Of a DNA stretch of 6,238 nt, positions 2-6,238 are shown one piece after another. The notes below the pieces were generated by a model. The model worked only from the letters and a program-made list of their open reading frames with translations, searched no databases and had not been told where the DNA came from. The stretch's first letter is position 1. Each line of letters starts with the position of its first letter. Position numbers and translations under genes: made by a program. This stretch comes from a virus (Duplodnaviria; Heunggongvirae; Uroviricota; Caudoviricetes). Location: IMG/VR virus record IMGVR_UViG_2537561935_000009; one strand, 5' to 3'.

Positions 2-178
2 GACAGCGCCGATCTCCTGTTTACGCTCCCTCTGCGGGAACGCGTTCGCATCACGCGCAGCAGTCAGGGCACGCCGCAGGCAGAACACCTGCCGGAGCCA
101 GAACCCCGCCTGCCATCTTCCGAAGGCGACTGGTCGCATGTATTCCAGGATGTGACGTGGGGTGAAAGCGATGGATAA
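2..178 (+). CDS. C-terminal fragment of a putative tail completion protein (P2 gpR-like); 5' end lies upstream of the window
   Basis: Frame 2 is open from the window edge to TAA at 176..178. Its translation (…DLLFTLPLRERVRITRSSQGTPQAEHLPEPEPRLPSSEGDWSHVFQDVTWGESDG) looks more protein-like than the other two forward frames, which are Cys/Arg-rich. Assignment to gpR rests only on position immediately upstream of the S-like gene in P2 gene order. Confidence 0.35.
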   Translation, partial: DSADLLFTLPLRERVRITRSSQGTPQAEHLPEPEPRLPSSEGDWSHVFQDVTWGESDG

Positions 179-806
179 GGCATTCACCCGCGTGGATGAA
201 ACCTTTGAGGCCATCCGCGACAGCCTGAATCAGCAGGCCATCAATAACATCGCCAGAAAGCTGGCACAGGATTTACGCCGCGCCCAGCAGGCGCGTATCC
301 GGTCACAGAAAGCGCCGGACGGGACCGCGTGGACACCACGCAGACGCCGCGTAACCCGGATACAGGAACGCATTCGCTTTATCTGGAATAACGAAGCACG
401 CACGCTGAAAAACTGGCATCACGACACGGGGAAATACGGGCGAACCATTACCGGGTGGGATGAGGATAAAAACAATATCCGCACGTTTTACCGGGATGAC
501 ATCGACCGTTTTCTGGAAATACGCACCAGGCGCATCAACCAGGACAGCACAAAGCGCGTCCCCATGTTCGTAAAACTGCGCACCGCCCGCTACCTGAAAG
601 CCCGTGCAGATGCTTCCGGTGTGACGGTGGGTTACAGCGGCGTGGCCGCACGTATTGCCCGCGTTCATCAGTTCGGTGAGCGCGATCAGGTTGCGCCGGG
701 CATTTTCACCGATTACCCGGTACGTGAGCTGCTGGGCATCAGTCAGGCAGATGAGCGCCTGATTTATAACACGGTGCTGGGCCGGATTGCGGAGGCTGTA
801 CGGTGA
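171..806 (+). CDS. Phage virion morphogenesis / tail completion protein (P2 gpS-like)
   Basis: ORF in the same orientation as the baseplate operon, ending TGA 804..806. I prefer ATG 171 (GGGG/GTGA purine-rich stretch about 8 nt upstream) over the ORF-track GTG at 162; either is possible. The C-terminal half (…PMFVKLRTARYLKARADASGVTVGYSGVAARIARVHQFGERD…) resembles the virion morphogenesis (gpS / Mu G) family as I recall it. Lies directly upstream of V as in P2. Confidence 0.7.
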   Translation: MDKAFTRVDETFEAIRDSLNQQAINNIARKLAQDLRRAQQARIRSQKAPDGTAWTPRRRRVTRIQERIRFIWNNEARTLKNWHHDTGKYGRTITGWDEDKNNIRTFYRDDIDRFLEIRTRRINQDSTKRVPMFVKLRTARYLKARADASGVTVGYSGVAARIARVHQFGERDQVAPGIFTDYPVRELLGISQADERLIYNTVLGRIAEAVR

Positions 807-1384
807 GCGCAGAACTCATGCGACTGCTGAGCAACATCATCCGCACCGGGATCATCTCTGAAGTTGATGAGAAGTCCTGGCGCGTGCGCGTTCGCAGCGG
901 CGAACTGGAAACAGGCTGGTTGCGCTGGAACACCACGCGCGCGGGAGCCTTCAATGTGTGGCTGCCGCCATCACCAGGCGAACAGGTGGTAATTGCCTGC
1001 ATTGGCGGCAACCCGGAAACCGCCATGATAATTGGCAGTCTGTGGAGTGATGCCAGTCCGGCCCCCGGCAAAAGCCTGAAAGAAATCGTGGTCAGCGCGC
1101 CGGATGGCGCGGTGTTCCGCTACGACGCAGACGCAGGCGCACTGAGCGCCAGCGGCATGAAAACAGCCACCCTGCAGGCATCCGTCAGCGTGACACTGGA
1201 CACGCCCGTCGTGGAATGCACAGACCTTCTGAGAACGGCGACGCTTGACGTCACAAAAGGGGGAAAGATGAGCGGCAATATCACGCACAGCGGCGGCAAT
1301 TTCACCTCAAACGGCATCACAGTGCATACGCATAAGCACGGTGGCGTTAAAGGTGGCAGCGATTCGACAGGAGGCCCGCAGTGA
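803..1384 (+). CDS. Baseplate assembly protein V (central spike, P2 gpV-like)
   Basis: 193-aa ORF with GTG start at 803 preceded by GGAGG at 791..795; the start overlaps the upstream stop (GTGA). The translation has the gpV-like pattern: IRTGII near the N-terminus, GEQV…GG core, and C-terminal …GG.M.GNI.HSGG…SNG…HTHKH…GG. Position between S and W matches P2. Confidence 0.9.
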   Translation: MSAELMRLLSNIIRTGIISEVDEKSWRVRVRSGELETGWLRWNTTRAGAFNVWLPPSPGEQVVIACIGGNPETAMIIGSLWSDASPAPGKSLKEIVVSAPDGAVFRYDADAGALSASGMKTATLQASVSVTLDTPVVECTDLLRTATLDVTKGGKMSGNITHSGGNFTSNGITVHTHKHGGVKGGSDSTGGPQ

Positions 1385-1731
1385 CAACCCGCTACACAGG
1401 AATGAACCCGGACGGGACGGGAAACCTGAACGATATGGAGCACCTGAAACAGTCAGTCAGGGATATCCTGACCACCCCGCTGGCAAGCCGGGTTATGCGA
1501 CGGGAATATGGCAGCCTTTTGCCTGATTTGATTGACGAACCCATGAATAACACCACGCGTCTGCAATGCATGAGTGCTGCCGTGATTGCACTGACACGAT
1601 GGGAACCCCGCATTGCCCTGGACGCCATCGACGTTGTCTGGAAGGCAGGAGGCCGCGCCGGGGTGACGCTGTCGGGCACTGTCATGCAGACCATGCAGAA
1701 TGTTGAATTAACCATCACGCTGAGGGAGTAA
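1381..1731 (+). CDS. Baseplate assembly protein W (GPW/gp25 family, P2 gpW-like)
   Basis: 116-aa ORF, GTG start at 1381 overlapping the V stop (GTGA), with AGGAGG at 1369..1374. N-terminus MTTRYTGMN… and internal …RVMRREYGSLLPDLIDEP…WEPRI… match my recollection of gpW/gp25-type baseplate wedge proteins. The size is about that of P2 gpW. Confidence 0.9.
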   Translation: MTTRYTGMNPDGTGNLNDMEHLKQSVRDILTTPLASRVMRREYGSLLPDLIDEPMNNTTRLQCMSAAVIALTRWEPRIALDAIDVVWKAGGRAGVTLSGTVMQTMQNVELTITLRE

Positions 1732-1734
1732 ATC

Positions 1735-2631
1735 ATGCCCGCCGTTGACCTTTCCCAGTTACCGGAACCCGCCATCATCGCGGAGCCTGACTTTGAAGCA
1801 ATTCTGGCTGACACAAAAGCCATGATGATTGCGTCCTATCCCGCCGAACAGCGTGAAGCCGTTTCCGCCGCGCTGGAGCTGGAATCGGAACCCCTTAACG
1901 TTATCGCCCAGACAACAGCGTTTCGTGAAATGCTGTTACGCCAGCGGGTCAATGAGGGTGCACGCGCCTGCATGTTAAGCCACAGCGCCGGGACAGACCT
2001 GGACAACCTCGCGGGCAATATGAACACAAAGCGCCTGGTTATCACTCCGGCAGCGGATACCACCGACGCGGTGATGGAGAGCGACACCTCGCTGAGACTG
2101 CGGGCGCAGCGGGCGTACGACGGCTTGAGTGTTGCTGGCCCGTCAGGTGCATACGAGTATTTTGCCCGCAGCGCCAGCGGTCTGGTGCGTGATGCGCGGG
2201 CTATCAGTCCGTCTCCGGCCAATGTGACGGTTTCCATCCTGTCCACTGAAGGCGACGGCACAGCAACGGAGGCGTTGCTTAATACCGTTCGCGCCGTTCT
2301 GAATGCAGAGGATACCCGCCCGGTGGCCGACCGCCTGACCGTACAGAGCGCCAGAATCGTGACATGGCGGCTGAATGCAAAACTGTACTTTTACCCCGGC
2401 CCGGAATCCGAACCTATTCTGGCCGCGGCTGAATCGTCGTTCAGGAAGTGGCTGGCTGAGCAGGGGCTTATCGGTCAGGACGTGGCGTTGTCCGCCATTG
2501 CTGCCGCACTTCATGTGCACGGCGTGCAACGCGTGGAGATAATCGAACCCACACAGAATATGGCCATCAGCGACATACAGGCGGCGCGCTGTGAGTCATT
2601 TACCATCAGCGAAGGTGGGCGCAATGAGTAA
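1735..2631 (+). CDS. Baseplate assembly protein J (P2 gpJ-like)
   Basis: 298-aa ORF, ATG at 1735 with GAGGGAG at 1723..1728. Size and position (after W, before I) match P2 gpJ; the sequence is typical of Baseplate_J family proteins as recalled. Confidence 0.9.
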   Translation: MPAVDLSQLPEPAIIAEPDFEAILADTKAMMIASYPAEQREAVSAALELESEPLNVIAQTTAFREMLLRQRVNEGARACMLSHSAGTDLDNLAGNMNTKRLVITPAADTTDAVMESDTSLRLRAQRAYDGLSVAGPSGAYEYFARSASGLVRDARAISPSPANVTVSILSTEGDGTATEALLNTVRAVLNAEDTRPVADRLTVQSARIVTWRLNAKLYFYPGPESEPILAAAESSFRKWLAEQGLIGQDVALSAIAAALHVHGVQRVEIIEPTQNMAISDIQAARCESFTISEGGRNE

Positions 2632-3154
2632 TTCACTGTTACCGCCATCAGCCAGCAGTTTCATGCGTTGTGCCGAAGCCGTCGGAACACGCATTACAGA
2701 CATTCCGGTAGACCTCAATACGCTGTGGTCGCCGGATACCTGCCCGGTGCATCTGCTGCCTTATCTCGCCTGGGCATTTTCCGTTGACCGCTGGGATCGC
2801 AACTGGCCGGAAGAGACAAAGCGACAGGTTATTCGTGATGCATGGCTGATACACCGACACAAAGGGACCATCAGCGCACTGCGCAGGGCCATTGAACCAC
2901 TGGGATACCTCATTCGCGTGTCTGAGTGGTGGGAGTTCGGAGGAGAACCGGGAACATTTACCGTTGAAGTCGGCACGCTGGACAGTGGCGTGACGGAGGA
3001 AATGTATCTGGAAATGGAGCGGTTGATTGCTGATGCCCGCCCGGTCAGCCGCCACATGACAGGGCTGAATATCATTCAGGAGATCCCGGGGGATATTTTC
3101 GCGGCGGCAGCAACTTACGACGGTGAAGTCATTACCATTTATCCGGACGATTAA
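2624..3154 (+). CDS. Tail protein I (baseplate, P2 gpI-like)
   Basis: I prefer ATG 2624 (GGTGGG at 2614..2619; 176 aa) over the ORF-track GTG at 2591. This start overlaps the J stop by 8 nt (ATGAGTAA). Motifs …LWSPDTCPVHLLPYLAWAFSVDRWDRNW… match my recollection of P2 gpI. Immediately precedes the tail fibre gene. Confidence 0.87.
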   Translation: MSNSLLPPSASSFMRCAEAVGTRITDIPVDLNTLWSPDTCPVHLLPYLAWAFSVDRWDRNWPEETKRQVIRDAWLIHRHKGTISALRRAIEPLGYLIRVSEWWEFGGEPGTFTVEVGTLDSGVTEEMYLEMERLIADARPVSRHMTGLNIIQEIPGDIFAAAATYDGEVITIYPDD

Positions 3155-3156
3155 GC

Positions 3157-5259
3157 ATGAGTACCACAACACGAAAATTTAAAACCGTTATCACCGATAC
3201 GGGTGCAAAAAAATTAGCTCAGGCAGCCGCGCCAGATGGTAAGCCTGTCCGCCTGACTCATATGGCCGTGGGCGACGGTGGCGGCACGTTGCCCACACCA
3301 GACAGTAAGCAGACCCGTCTGGTGCATGAGGTGTGGCGACACACTGTTAATCGCGTCATCCTGGACGCAACACATCAGAACCACATTATTGCGGAGCTGG
3401 TTATTCCTCCTGAAACGGGCGGATTCTGGATCCGGGAAATTGGTGTATTTGATGAGCACGGCGATTTGATCGCGGTGGGCAATACTGCGGAAAGTTACAA
3501 GCCAGCCGTTGCCGAAGGATCCGGACGTGCACAAACATTTCGCACCATTCTGACCGTATCCAGCACTGCCACCGTGGCGCTTACCGTGGATAACACCATG
3601 GTGATGGCCACAGTGGATTACGTGAATGACAAACTGAAAGAACATGAACAGTCACGACGTCACCCGGACGCCTCGCTGACCGCAAAAGGCTTTGTTCAAC
3701 TCAGTAGCGCCACTAACAGCACGTCTGAAACGCAGGCTGCAACGCCGAAAGCAGTAAAAGCCGCGTATGACCTGGCTAACGCAAAATATACCGCTCAGGA
3801 CGCCACGACGGCACGAAAAGGGATAGTCCAGCTCAGTAGTGCCACCAACAGCACGTCTGAAACGCTGGCCGCGACACCGAAAGCGGTTAAGGTGGTAATG
3901 GATGAAACGAACAAGAAAGCGCCCTTAAACAGCCCGGCGCTGACCGGAACGCCAACAACACCAACTGCGCGACAGGGAACGAATAATACCCAAATCGCAA
4001 GCACGGCTTATGTGATGGCCGCGATTGCCGCACTTGTAGATTCGTCACCTGACGCACTGAACACGCTGAACGAGCTGGCGGCGGCGCTGGGCAACGACCC
4101 GAATTTTGCGACCACCATGACTAACGCGCTTGCGGGTAAGCAACCGAAAGATGCCACCCTGACGGCGCTGGCCGGGCTTGCTACTGCAGCAGACAGGTTT
4201 CCGTATTTTACGGGGAATGATGTTGCCAGCCTGGCAACCCTGACAAAAGTCGGGCGGGATATTCTTGCAAAATCGACCATTGCCGCCGTTATCGAATACC
4301 TCGGTTTACAGGAAACGGTAAATCAGGCTTCTGGAGCATTACAAAAAAACCAGAACGGCGCAGATATTCCGGGAAAAGATACCTTCACCAAAAATATTGG
4401 GGCCTGCCGCGCATATAGCGCATGGCTGAATATTGGTGGCGATAGTCAGGCCTGGACAACCGCACAATTCATTTCGTGGCTGGAGAGTCAGGGGGCATTT
4501 AACCATCCTTACTGGATGTGCAAAGGCTCATGGGCTTATGCAAATAATAAGGTCATTACAGATACAGGTTGCGGAAATATTTGTCTTGCAGGTGCTGTGG
4601 TGGAAGTTATTGGCACTCGCGGCGCAATGACCATACGCGTTACCACGCCGAGCACGTCCAGCGGCGGCGGAATTACTAACGCTCAATTCACCTATATTAA
4701 TCATGGTGATGCTTATGCTCCTGGCTGGCGACGAGACTACAACACGAAAAACCAGCAGCCTGCATTTGCTTTAGGGCAGACAGGAAGCAGGGTTGCAAAT
4801 GATAAAGCTGTTGGCTGGAACTGGAATAGCGGTGTTTATGATGCAGATATTGGTGGCGCAACAGCATTAATCCTCCACTTCAATATGAATACGGGGAGTT
4901 GCCCTGCCGTACAGTTCCGCGTGAATTACAGGAATGGCGGTATTTTTTATCGTTCAGCGCGTGATGGTTATGGATTTGAGGCTAACTGGTCAGAGTTTTA
5001 CACCACGACCCGCAAACCCTCTGCGGGAGATGTTGGTGCATACACGCAGGCAGAATGTAACTCAAGGTTTATTACAGGTATTCGCCTTGGCGGTCTGTCA
5101 TCTGTTCAGACATGGAATGGTCCCGGCTGGTCTGACAGGTCAGGTTATGTCGTTACGGGTTCAGTTAACGGAAACCGTGATGAATTAATTGATACAACTC
5201 AGGCAAGGCCAATTCAGTATTGCATTAATGGGACGTGGTATAACGCGGGGAGTATTTAA
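3157..5259 (+). CDS. Tail fibre protein (P2 gpH-like), with a conserved N-terminal baseplate-attachment/shaft region (about aa 1-382) and a compositionally distinct C-terminal receptor-binding region (about aa 383-700)
   Basis: 700-aa ORF starting 2 nt after the I stop. The N-terminus (MSTTTRKFKTVITDTGAKKLAQAA…VRLTHMAVGDGGG) and two copies of the phage tail fibre repeat (…QLSSATNSTSET.AATPKAVK…) are gpH-like. The C-terminal third is AT-richer and Trp/Gly/Cys/Asn-rich, as expected for a swapped receptor-binding module. Confidence 0.92.
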   Translation: MSTTTRKFKTVITDTGAKKLAQAAAPDGKPVRLTHMAVGDGGGTLPTPDSKQTRLVHEVWRHTVNRVILDATHQNHIIAELVIPPETGGFWIREIGVFDEHGDLIAVGNTAESYKPAVAEGSGRAQTFRTILTVSSTATVALTVDNTMVMATVDYVNDKLKEHEQSRRHPDASLTAKGFVQLSSATNSTSETQAATPKAVKAAYDLANAKYTAQDATTARKGIVQLSSATNSTSETLAATPKAVKVVMDETNKKAPLNSPALTGTPTTPTARQGTNNTQIASTAYVMAAIAALVDSSPDALNTLNELAAALGNDPNFATTMTNALAGKQPKDATLTALAGLATAADRFPYFTGNDVASLATLTKVGRDILAKSTIAAVIEYLGLQETVNQASGALQKNQNGADIPGKDTFTKNIGACRAYSAWLNIGGDSQAWTTAQFISWLESQGAFNHPYWMCKGSWAYANNKVITDTGCGNICLAGAVVEVIGTRGAMTIRVTTPSTSSGGGITNAQFTYINHGDAYAPGWRRDYNTKNQQPAFALGQTGSRVANDKAVGWNWNSGVYDADIGGATALILHFNMNTGSCPAVQFRVNYRNGGIFYRSARDGYGFEANWSEFYTTTRKPSAGDVGAYTQAECNSRFITGIRLGGLSSVQTWNGPGWSDRSGYVVTGSVNGNRDELIDTTQARPIQYCINGTWYNAGSI
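3685..3903 (+). repeat. Two tandem copies of a ~27-aa phage tail fibre repeat within H (unit 1 at 3685..3771, unit 2 at 3817..3903; period 132 nt)
   Basis: Direct comparison of the H translation: KGFVQLSSATNSTSETQAATPKAVKAAYD versus KGIVQLSSATNSTSETLAATPKAVKVVMD, with clearly related nucleotide sequence. Confidence 0.85.
4289..4314. other. Putative crossover site for a Gin/Hin/Cin/Pin-family serine DNA invertase (gix/hix-like 26-bp imperfect dyad) inside the tail fibre gene
   Basis: Sequence TTATCGAATACC-TC-GGTTTACAGGAA: two 12-bp half-sites (TTATCGAATACC and, reverse-complemented, TTCCTGTAAACC) around a central dinucleotide. The right half is identical to the gix/hix-type half-site as I recall it. 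It lies within codons V378-E386 of H, exactly at the compositional break between the constant and variable parts. Confidence 0.6.
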
Positions 5260-5261
5260 TT

Positions 5262-5795
5262 ATGATGCACTTAAAAAACATTACTGCTGGCAACCCTAAA
5301 ACAAAAGAGCAATACCAGCTAACAAAGCAATTTAACATCAAATGGCTTTATTCAGATGATGGAAAAAACTGGTATGAGGAACAAAAGAATTTCCAGCCAG
5401 ACACTTTGAAAATGGTCTATGACCATAACGGCGTTATTATTTGTATTGAAAAGGATGTTTCAGCAATTAATCCGGAAGGCGCAAGCGTCGTTGAATTACC
5501 TGATATTACAGCAAATCGCCGTGCTGACATTTCGGGTAAATGGATGTTCAAAGATGGCGTAGTGGTAAAGCGAACTTATACCGAGGAAGAGCAGAGGCAG
5601 CTGGCGGAAAATGAAAAGCAAAGCCTGCTACAGCTCGTCAGGGATAAAACCCAGCTATGGGACTCACAGCTACGGCTGGGCATCATTTCCGACGAGAATA
5701 AACAAAAATTAACCGAGTGGATGCTCTATGCGCAGAAAGTCGAATCTACAGACACTTCCGGTCTGCCAGTAACGTTTCCCGAACAACCAGAATGA
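5262..5795 (+). CDS. tfa: Tail fibre assembly protein (Tfa; P2 gpG / Mu U family chaperone)
   Basis: 177-aa ORF starting 2 nt after the H stop, with GGGGAG about 10 nt upstream. Conserved Tfa-type central block …[24 protein letters not shown]… and C-terminal …PVTFPEQPE; size matches P2 gpG. Confidence 0.9.
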   Translation: MMHLKNITAGNPKTKEQYQLTKQFNIKWLYSDDGKNWYEEQKNFQPDTLKMVYDHNGVIICIEKDVSAINPEGASVVELPDITANRRADISGKWMFKDGVVVKRTYTEEEQRQLAENEKQSLLQLVRDKTQLWDSQLRLGIISDENKQKLTEWMLYAQKVESTDTSGLPVTFPEQPE

Positions 5796-5798
5796 GAG

Positions 5799-5825
5799 AA
5801 GGCCCGCTATCGGGCCTTAATTTTT
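5799..5825. terminator. Intrinsic terminator hairpin between the convergent tfa genes
   Basis: AAGGCCCG (5799..5806) / loop CTAT / CGGGCCTT (5811..5818), an 8-bp GC-rich stem, followed by TTTTT at 5821..5825. It sits in the 28-bp gap between the + tfa stop (5793..5795) and the minus tfa stop (5824..5826). The U-tract is good only for the + transcript. Confidence 0.55.
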
Positions 5826-6238
5826 ACTCTGGTTTTTGTGGCCATTCAGGATTTGCCGTATCCACACGGCTGACCAGAACACTGTAGCGTTCCCATGCTT
5901 CCAGTCGGCTGTGGTCCTCATCCGTTGCCATATTCAGCCTTACTGCACGCTCTAGTAGTTGAATGACTGATTCAGCATCAGCAAGAAGTCTGGCTTTCTG
6001 ATTTTCTACCTGCTGCTGTAATTCCTCTTCCGTATAAATACGTTTAATAACTGCGCCATCCTTAAACATCCAGTTACCAGAAATGTCGGCACGTCGGTTA
6101 GCAGTAATATCCGGCACTTCAACAACACTTAATCCATCCGGTCTGATAGCTGTTACATCCTTTTCCACATAGCGGATGATGTTATCTTTGTCATACGCTA
6201 ATTTTATCGTGTCATCCTGGAAGTTCTTTTGTTCCTCA
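5824..6238 (-). CDS. Second, divergent tail fibre assembly protein (Tfa-prime), convergent with tfa; N-terminus lies beyond the window end
   Basis: The minus-strand reading frame is open from the window edge (6238) to TAA at 5824..5826. Translating by hand upstream of the ORF-track GTG at 6166..6168 gives …[61 protein letters not shown]…, which aligns with residues ~39-100 of the + strand Tfa (…[61 protein letters not shown]…). The true start is therefore upstream of the window; the 114-aa ORF-track call is a truncation. Confidence 0.85.

Follow-up and report, generated by a model that had tools for sequence, protein, structure and literature searches.

A gix-type crossover site between the constant and variable parts of a P2-type tail-fibre gene and its probable place in a Mu-like invertible cassette

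Does a 26-bp sequence embedded in the tail-fibre gene of a draft viral contig mark the edge of a DNA segment that is inverted to exchange receptor-binding fibre tips, or is it simply part of the fibre coding sequence? The DNA analyzed here (the window) is the entire 6,238-bp draft contig AQCL01000165.1 (GCA_000354615.2), which ends inside the putative invertible segment. A partner site and an invertase of the source strain would therefore fall outside the sequence analyzed. The original prediction had read the 26-mer as an invertase crossover site closely resembling the gix site of phage Mu and had concluded from it that the fibre is phase-variable.

The first part of this reading is correct: the 26-mer is an invertase crossover site of gix type, placed where the constant part of a tail-fibre gene meets the variable part. 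It lies on the plus strand at the predicted position as an imperfect dyad, in which two 12-bp half-sites flank a 2-bp core (12 + 2 + 12 bp) and dyad symmetry holds at 7 of the 12 half-site positions (Table 1). Both gix sites of Mu (NC_000929) have the sequence TTATCCAAAACCTCGGTTTACAGGAA, identical to the one given in the original prediction. The close resemblance thus stands, with 24 of 26 positions identical rather than the estimated 23 or so. A match with at most three mismatches occurred in none of 200 dinucleotide-preserving shuffles, and none is expected by chance. In Mu, the annotated boundary of the G segment falls at the centre of the site homologous to the 26-mer. No second site was found within the 6,238-bp window, and a shufflon operating through a third site in the window was rejected, the only candidate being a chance-level 10/12 core match at positions 5647–5658. 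Exact and degenerate scans of a species-representative genome collection with the 26-mer returned no match, from which no conclusion was drawn.

The 26-mer is read in frame (...AAVIEYLGLQETVN...) within a 700-aa open reading frame (ORF) and, as originally proposed, is located where the conserved part of H ends and an AT-richer part starts. GC content drops from ~0.55–0.58 upstream of the site to ~0.48–0.50 downstream, reaching 0.37–0.40 around positions 5100–5550. Among P88-like relatives, variable alignment columns number 32 of 300 upstream of the site, 2 of 26 in the site and 56 of 60 just downstream. Thus, the constant/variable boundary at the site is real. The site itself shows no significant excess of conservation over the constant coding sequence beside it (2/26 versus 32/300 variable columns; p ~0.05–0.26), so that its conservation gives no independent support.

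Table 1. Features of the 6,238-bp window around the 26-bp site.
Feature	Coordinates	Strand	Sequence or basis
Constant N-terminal part of the tail-fibre gene, P2 H type, outside the putative invertible segment (ORF 3157–5259)	3157–4300	+	Pfam Phage_tail_fib, Phage_fiber_2
Extended inverted-repeat zone, ~38–43 bp: site and conserved flanking codons; strand switch maps here	4285–4327		Window compared with P88 and WS1933D copies
gix-type 26-bp crossover site, left (H-side)	4289–4314	+	TTATCGAATACCTCGGTTTACAGGAA (sequence confirmed)
Outer half-site of the 26-mer			TTATCGAATACC
2-bp core of the 26-mer	4301–4302		TC
Inner half-site of the 26-mer			GGTTTACAGGAA
Variable C-terminal (receptor-binding) part fused to H, Mu S' (G(-)) type	4303–5259	+	88% aa identity to the variable part of Mu S'
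Tail-fibre assembly/chaperone gene, Mu U' type, predicted to be expressed in the present orientation	5262–5795	+	Pfam Caudo_TAP; 96% aa identity to Mu U'
GC-rich hairpin followed by a T-run, terminator-like, between the convergent assembly genes	5799–5818	+	Terminators annotated in the homologous region of D108
Second assembly gene, Mu U type, inverted, predicted to be silent in the present state; 5' end cut by the contig end	5824–6238	-	Pfam Caudo_TAP; 75% aa identity to Mu U

The window has the layout of a split fibre gene, in which the constant 5' part lies outside the segment, the tip, U' and an inverted U lie inside it, and the alternative tip falls beyond the contig. The constant part of H comprises a tail-collar N-terminal domain and fibre repeats; it is almost identical to P2 H up to ...LGLQETVN and 96–99% identical to its counterparts in P88-like prophages. 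DNA homology of the variable part to Mu, D108 and P7 starts at the site, and homology (~90–94%) to the invertible segments of Mu (G) and of P1 and P7 (C) extends from window position 4286 to the contig end. With at most ~94% identity to any of the copies retrieved, the variable module of the window constitutes a somewhat divergent allele. The late genes follow the P2-type order S-V-W-J-I-H as assigned by Pfam, with 96–99% nucleotide identity to related entries (L011, L001, L002, L012), P88 and phage 503458, and all tail and baseplate ORFs of the window are intact. Judged on these 6.2 kb only, the host element is a P88-like E. coli prophage (Peduoviridae, Xuanwuvirus).

The half of the segment that falls beyond the contig end is represented in related elements. 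In all seven related full-context copies examined (four E. coli genomes, the redundant second copy of WS1933D, and phages P88 and 503458), an inverted partner site is found 2.7–4.1 kb downstream and is followed by a serine invertase. The partner has the same ACC-TC-GGTTT centre and adjoins a Gin homologue. The original prediction had placed an inverted copy of the site in a minus-strand fibre fragment, followed by a serine recombinase of ~190 aa, and both were found in every full-context close relative, the partner ~1.0–1.1 kb past the equivalent of the window end and the recombinase with a length of 196–199 aa. A partnered site with the TC core kept is present in L001, L002, L005, L006, L009, L010, L011 and L012, and full modules consisting of the partner, the TC core and a 196–199-aa protein with Resolvase and HTH_7 domains are present in L001, L002, L006, L011, L012, P88 and phage 503458. 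Among the complete E. coli genomes examined, the partner is present in four of four and an intact invertase in three of the four. The relatives' invertases are 80–81% identical to Gin and conserve Ser9, and nearly the same invertase recurs in numerous genomes. The first 200 nt of their genes are almost identical to the start of Mu gin, a stretch which we take to hold the Fis-dependent enhancer of Mu; in the P1 record, an enhancer for Cin is annotated at nt 19–90 of cin. Past position 6238 of the window, the partner would be expected in the form of a minus-strand copy of TTATYTAAAACCTCGGTTTRCRRGAA.

Both orientations of the segment, with breakpoints at the sites, are seen among relatives; the source contig holds a single orientation. 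When the window is aligned with P88, the constant part matches on one strand up to position 4327 and the segment on the other strand from position 4285, P88 carrying a window-type module in the opposite orientation. The WS1933D record contains an 11.2-kb redundant end overlap of 99.8–99.96% identity within which a 3.1-kb segment is oppositely oriented, and its two copies overlap by 38–39 nt at each boundary. Viral contigs show the window-type module in either orientation with respect to H. Of the two junctions, the predicted flipped form occurs in 354 complete E. coli genomes and the window-type form in 126. Flipping the segment of relatives in silico yields in-frame fibres of 725 aa and 720 aa. 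The source contig runs through the site without an assembly break and thus gives no sign of mixed orientation in the source assembly. Among 39 whole contigs, six end 2.9–3.2 kb past the left site and two within 350 nt of it. These ends are suggestive of mixed orientation but were not taken as evidence of it, because repeated sequences, for instance an invertase gene common to several prophages, would produce the same pattern of contig breaks.

We consider it probable that the 26-mer is the left, H-side crossover site of an invertible cassette of the Mu G-segment type residing in a P88-like E. coli prophage. The cassette would contain two fibre tips as alternatives, each accompanied by an assembly gene, with the two tip-and-chaperone pairs facing each other. 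In the captured state, H would continue into the S'-type tip with the U'-type chaperone, both being transcribed as part of the V-W-J-I-H operon, and the alternative tip and the U-type chaperone would be silent on the opposite strand. A Gin-family serine invertase encoded just past the cassette would bind the left site and its inverted partner, placed by homology ~3 kb away, cut the central TC with a 2-bp stagger via Ser9, rotate the strands and rejoin them. The flip would fuse the other tip to H in frame and thereby change the receptor specificity of the progeny phage. Invertibility is supported by the inverted assembly gene of the window together with the complete modules in relatives. We expect, only a little less firmly, that the source strain has both the partner site and an intact invertase, and phase variation of the fibre in that strain is likely.

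The main competing explanation, which we regard as rather unlikely, is a cassette of the same origin that has become locked, its partner or invertase having been deleted, truncated or frameshifted, so that the fibre is fixed in the S'/U' state. The 26-mer would then be only coding sequence (…VIEYLGLQE…), flipped at most in trans by a Pin-family invertase of another prophage. The fixed, non-inverting fibre gene H of P2 lends weight to this explanation: its constant part is nearly identical to that of the window ahead of the site, and it carries the 26-mer at the same codons as the window with one mismatch, a C to T change at position 11, inside the ACC kept by every paired site. Neither a partner site nor an annotated invertase was found in the 11-kb stretch of P2 examined, and a single assembly gene (G) is followed there by fun(Z), unlike the convergent pair of the window. 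Fixation is also suggested by a survey of 20 viral contigs in which the exact 26-mer is followed by 5 kb or more of DNA. A partner is present in 13 of them, and neither partner nor invertase in seven; three (L023, L056 and L072) retain the partner with only a truncated invertase, which in L072 is a 72-codon ORF. Remnants are visible in L092, where only a 38-aa C-terminal piece of the invertase remains directly after a single assembly gene, and in L078, which retains 69 aa of the inverted chaperone. The list of truncated or frameshifted invertases is completed by WS1933D, annotated as frameshifted (a parallel list has L002 as the fourth entry). An IS600 element is inserted in U' of the closest relative, L011, and the unbroken passage of the source contig through the site fits a fixed fibre as well.

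The step from the presence of the site to phase variation, as originally drawn, therefore fails when taken alone: P2 and 7 of the 20 viral contigs have the site with no sign of a partner or an invertase in the DNA covered, and, because the site is kept in fixed P2-type H genes, the 26-mer alone is not diagnostic of invertibility. The original prediction had allowed that the site might be no more than coding sequence shared by non-invertible P2-like H genes. This holds in part, namely for P2 and the seven contigs, but the inverted assembly gene of the window and the modules of its relatives still favour invertibility. Among viral contigs with an inverted second assembly gene, the partner is present in 13 of 16, with a full-length invertase in 10 of those 13. 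This association, together with the partners and mostly intact invertases of the complete E. coli genomes and the intact tail and baseplate ORFs of the window, argues against a locked cassette. As a practical rule, invertibility is predicted by a convergent pair of assembly genes in combination with a partner site and an intact invertase.

That the 26-mer is conserved fibre coding sequence unrelated to site-specific recombination, its resemblance to gix being incidental, is extremely improbable: the lack of significant excess conservation over the flank and the occurrence in non-inverting P2 would fit, but the explanation is effectively refuted by the near-complete match to a biochemically defined recombination site with the Mu G-segment boundary at its centre, by the start of Mu-segment homology exactly at the site, by the orientation switches between related genomes that map there, and by the shared centre of the relatives' partner beside a Gin homologue.

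We compared the probable cassette with known invertible fibre loci. The Mu G segment (Gin, gix, S/U, S'/U') shares the 26-bp site, the TC core and the position at the constant/variable junction, as well as the cassette layout (tip, chaperone, inverted chaperone, inverted tip), and its DNA is ~90% identical to that of the window. The differences from Mu lie in the constant part, which here is a P2-type H with a tail-collar domain and not the constant part of Mu S; in the host element, a Peduoviridae prophage as opposed to a transposable phage; in the outer half-sites, TTATCGAATACC and TTATCTAAAACC versus TTATCCAAAACC in Mu, which differ at two positions; and in the C-terminal DNA-binding third of the relatives' invertase, which has diverged from Gin. 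The C segment of P1 and P7 (Cin, cix) has the same organization, and its U'/U and part of its Sv' DNA are 88–92% identical to the window. However, cix has a TT instead of a TC core, 5 of its 26 positions differ from the window site, and the C segment is longer (4.2 kb), with Cin encoded on the other side, adjoining cixL. P88, phage 503458 and related E. coli prophages share the prophage backbone, with 96–99% identity across the baseplate and H genes, and have an identical H-side 26-mer. Their records contain this cassette together with a gene annotated as "DNA invertase", whereas the window lacks the right half owing to the contig end. The paper on the host range of P88 mentions neither an invertase nor inversion (PMC5285337), and the same is true of a 2026 paper on P2-like phage diversity. 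In the P2-like prophages of enteropathogenic E. coli (EPEC) E2348/69 and in e14 (Pin family), a serine-invertase flip fuses alternative C-termini to the tail-fibre gene, and paired-end sequencing and PCR revealed coexisting orientations of the EPEC tail-fibre segments within single cultures (PMC4272514). These loci differ in their pix-type repeats (AAACCTTGGTTTGGGAGAAGG), TT core and other fibre modules, and one locus is a shufflon with three sites and four states. A tail-fibre inversion system of this kind is ordinary and already described, including its setting in a P2-family (P88-like) prophage.

The current understanding of serine-invertase switches is unchanged by this locus, the value of which is mainly for annotation. 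If the cassette is invertible, as we think probable, H of the window is to be annotated as one of two alternative products, and the downstream fragment labelled "hypothetical" or "missing N-terminus" in relatives represents the alternative tip in its silent state rather than a pseudogene. Host-range prediction for the prophage should weigh both fibre tips.

A further possibility, which we put forward tentatively and consider unlikely, is that prophages with a broken invertase of their own still switch in trans, through Gin/Pin-family invertases of other prophages acting on shared gix-type sites. Gin, Cin, Pin and Hin are classically known to complement one another, and so trans switching, even if true, would extend a known principle. 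Fibre phase variation would then be a trait of the prophage community of the cell as a whole and not of each element. In WS1933D, where a sequencing error in a homopolymer may account for the frameshift instead, both redundant copies annotate a frameshifted invertase, yet both orientations are captured in the assembly.

The 26-bp sequence TTATCGAATACCTCGGTTTACAGGAA (window 4289–4314, plus strand) lies in frame within the 700-aa ORF of the tail-fibre gene H, where it encodes ...AAVIEYLGLQETVN..., and is composed of two 12-bp half-sites, with dyad symmetry at 7 of 12 positions, around a TC core (4301–4302). It is identical at 24 of 26 positions to both copies of the gix site in the Mu reference genome. 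The original prediction of a gix-like invertase crossover site is thus borne out in position, frame, dyad and accompanying GC drop; the gix sequence that it gave is exact in the Mu genome, but its count of about 23 matching positions is not. Conservation of the 26-mer shows no significant excess over the constant coding flank. No chance matches with three or fewer mismatches were found in 200 dinucleotide-preserving shuffles, and a coincidental resemblance to gix is highly improbable. The 26-mer is the left crossover site of an invertible tail-fibre cassette of the Gin family (two alternative fibre tips with their own assembly genes, facing each other) in a P88-like prophage, in the S'/U' state.

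GC content falls from ~0.55–0.58 before the 26-mer to ~0.48–0.50 after it, with a minimum of 0.37–0.40 at 5100–5550 (where the fibre tip ends and the U'-type gene begins) compared with 0.55–0.62 in the baseplate genes, a mosaic around the minimum that fits a horizontally acquired cassette. The window is the entire contig AQCL01000165.1 of the draft assembly GCA_000354615.2 and stops 1,924 nt past the 26-mer, rather than at it, within the inverted U-type assembly gene. Because the contig crosses the 26-mer without a break, there is no sign of mixed orientation in the source assembly.

Gene layout of the window
Feature	Coordinates	Strand	Context
S-like morphogenesis protein	162–806		P2-type late-gene block
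V spike	803–1384		P2-type late-gene block
W	1381–1731		P2-type late-gene block
J	1735–2631		P2-type late-gene block
I	2624–3154		P2-type late-gene block
H tail fibre	3157–5259		tail-collar N-terminal domain and fibre repeats
Tail-fibre assembly gene	5262–5795	+	
Terminator-like hairpin	5799–5818		
Second assembly gene	5824 to window end (6238)	-	

For gene I, the longest ORF begins at GTG 2591 (2591–3154), and the recorded gene call and the 531-nt genes of relatives place the start at 2624, giving an 8-nt overlap with the end of J; V is annotated as 567 nt in relatives, shorter than the 582-nt ORF from GTG 803. The constant part of H contains a 93-nt direct repeat (3666–3758 and 3798–3890, 78% identity, spacing 132 nt) that matches Phage_fiber_2 repeats. 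The E. coli prophage L001 has one extra 132-nt unit (744 aa versus 700 aa), so the copy number differs among relatives, and a 132-nt 'repeated element a1' is annotated for the constant S region in the P1 record. The paralogous pair of convergent assembly genes forms a 243-nt inverted repeat (5375–5617 versus 5996–6238, 71% identity), a possible substrate for invertase-independent homologous inversion.

Megablast searches of phage genomes matched the G segment of Mu and D108 and the C segment of P1 and P7, with homology beginning at the first base of the 26-mer. Direct blastn against Mu gave 90.5% identity from window 4286 to the contig end, and the G-segment boundary annotated in the Mu record is the centre of the homologous 26-mer. 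The window fibre tip shares 88% identity with the variable part of Mu S'; identity is 96% between the plus-strand chaperone and U', and 75% between the minus-strand chaperone, cut by the contig end, and U. The window therefore carries a Mu-type cassette oriented to express the S'/U' pair, the G(-) state of Mu. Mu G(+) and G(-) particles bind to distinct lipopolysaccharide cores, so that their enterobacterial hosts differ.

The window backbone is 96–99% identical to prophages of complete E. coli genomes (98.7% for L011, from strain 720632; ~96% for L001, L002 and L012), and phages P88 and 503458 (Peduoviridae, genus Xuanwuvirus) are similarly close. All these relatives share the H-side 26-mer, and in each of them an inverted partner, TTATCTAAAACCTCGGTTTACAGGAA or a close variant with a TC core, is found 2.7–4.1 kb further downstream, where a minus-strand fibre fragment has its 5' end. 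A Resolvase+HTH_7 protein of 196–199 aa lies ~55–80 nt past the partner. The expectation of an inverted partner beyond the window was thus right for the relatives, in which it lies ~1.0–1.1 kb past the window-equivalent end, as was that of a ~190-aa serine recombinase downstream.

The relatives' invertase is 80–81% identical to Gin, with Ser9 kept, and 75% identical to Cin. Residues 1–120 of the prophage proteins (e.g. L001 9297–9896) are near-identical to Gin, whereas the C-terminal DNA-binding HTH third has diverged. These invertases are thus mosaic relative to Gin, with an HTH divergence that parallels the two-position change in the outer half-sites. Over its first 200 nt the gene is nearly identical to Mu gin, and this is where Mu has its Fis-dependent enhancer; in the P1 record the Cin enhancer is annotated at nt 19–90 of cin.

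Several observations point to inversion at the site. When the L001 and L002 segments were flipped in silico, constant H joined the alternative tips in frame, yielding fibres of 725 aa and 720 aa, respectively. Among complete E. coli genomes, 354 contain the junction predicted for the flipped state (at least 80% coverage) and 126 the window-type junction. In the relative L006 the cassette is cleanly flipped and the invertase intact. P88 carries the window-type module the other way round: alignment of the constant part on one strand extends to window 4327, and that of the segment on the other strand begins at 4285, so that the strand switch brackets the 26-mer. Among viral contigs, too, this module is seen facing either way with respect to H. 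Outer half-sites remain attached to their flanks, TTATCGAATACC at the H end and TTAT[C/T]TAAAACC at the invertase end, and the inner half-sites differ by module, the pattern that exchange at the core would give.

Both orientations also occur within one record, NZ_CP035836.1 (E. coli WS1933D), labelled a complete chromosome. The first 11,175 nt of this record recur as its last 11,174 nt with 99.8–99.96% identity (L013 1–11175; L014 8977–20150), the copies differing mostly by small indels, and the 3.1-kb stretch flanked by the two sites is inverted between them, with 38–39-nt alignment overlaps at each boundary. The repeat stops exactly at the record ends, as an untrimmed circularisation overlap would, and it is probably one that escaped detection owing to the presence of both orientations in culture; a single DNA preparation apparently gave both. 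In both WS1933D copies the annotation marks the invertase as frameshifted (A5 to A4). In P2-like prophages of EPEC, paired-end sequencing and PCR revealed coexisting tail-fibre segment orientations at pix-type repeats (PMC4272514). The system is of a textbook type, annotated in related phage genomes and measured at similar loci in P2-like prophages.

Invertases of this type make a 2-bp staggered cut at the core dinucleotide. By analogy with established Gin biochemistry (PMC3575834), invertase dimers would bind the two inverted sites of the window cassette, Fis would then activate the complex through the enhancer, and cleavage via Ser9 would be followed by 180-degree subunit rotation and religation.

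The original prediction went from the 26-mer to a phase-variable fibre. The identity of the crossover site stands, but invertibility does not follow from the site alone, as seen in P2 and in 7 of 20 viral contigs. P2 has a lone copy, TTATCGAATATCTCGGTTTACAGGAA (L007 4858–4883), in the same H codons, with one mismatch, C to T at position 11, within the ACC kept by all paired sites; neither a partner site nor an annotated invertase was found in the 11-kb stretch examined. P2 has a single assembly gene followed by fun(Z), whereas the window has a convergent pair, and the lone P2 site looks like a relic of an invertible ancestor or of exchanged modules. In all, 95 viral contigs contain the exact 26-mer. 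Among the 20 with at least 5 kb downstream, ten have a partner site and a full-length invertase, three a partner site and a truncated invertase (in L072, a 72-codon remnant followed by unrelated DNA), and seven neither. Four of these seven have one assembly gene, as in P2, and three retain a minus-strand assembly gene or fragment.

It is conceivable, if rather unlikely, that the window cassette originated as an invertible one but is locked in its strain because the partner site or the invertase has been lost. The partner is present in 13 of the 16 contigs having a minus-strand assembly gene, and the convergent pair, as in the window, predicts invertibility better than the 26-mer. We consider it likely that the source strain carries a complete module able to switch.

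The L072 remnant (3391–3609, minus strand) resembles 99-aa N-terminal matches in L023 and L056, all in degenerate modules. L092, one of the four single-assembly-gene contigs, has a 38-aa C-terminal invertase remnant directly after the assembly gene and looks like a deletion derivative. Six of 39 whole viral contigs end 2.9–3.2 kb past the left site, where the partner site and the invertase start are located, and two stop less than 350 nt from the left site; this may reflect mixed orientations, or assemblies broken by repeated invertase genes. In L011, an IS600-family insertion (8103–9259) splits the U'-type assembly gene within the cassette, and the alternative module also differs (a gp53-like domain protein and a 158-aa chaperone). 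P88-like prophages have the FI-FII-E-T-U tail operon and V-W-J-I-H in convergent orientation, with the cassette and invertase between them (L013, L014; L001 9923–13214); in P2 the same two operons are codirectional, with fun(Z) between them.
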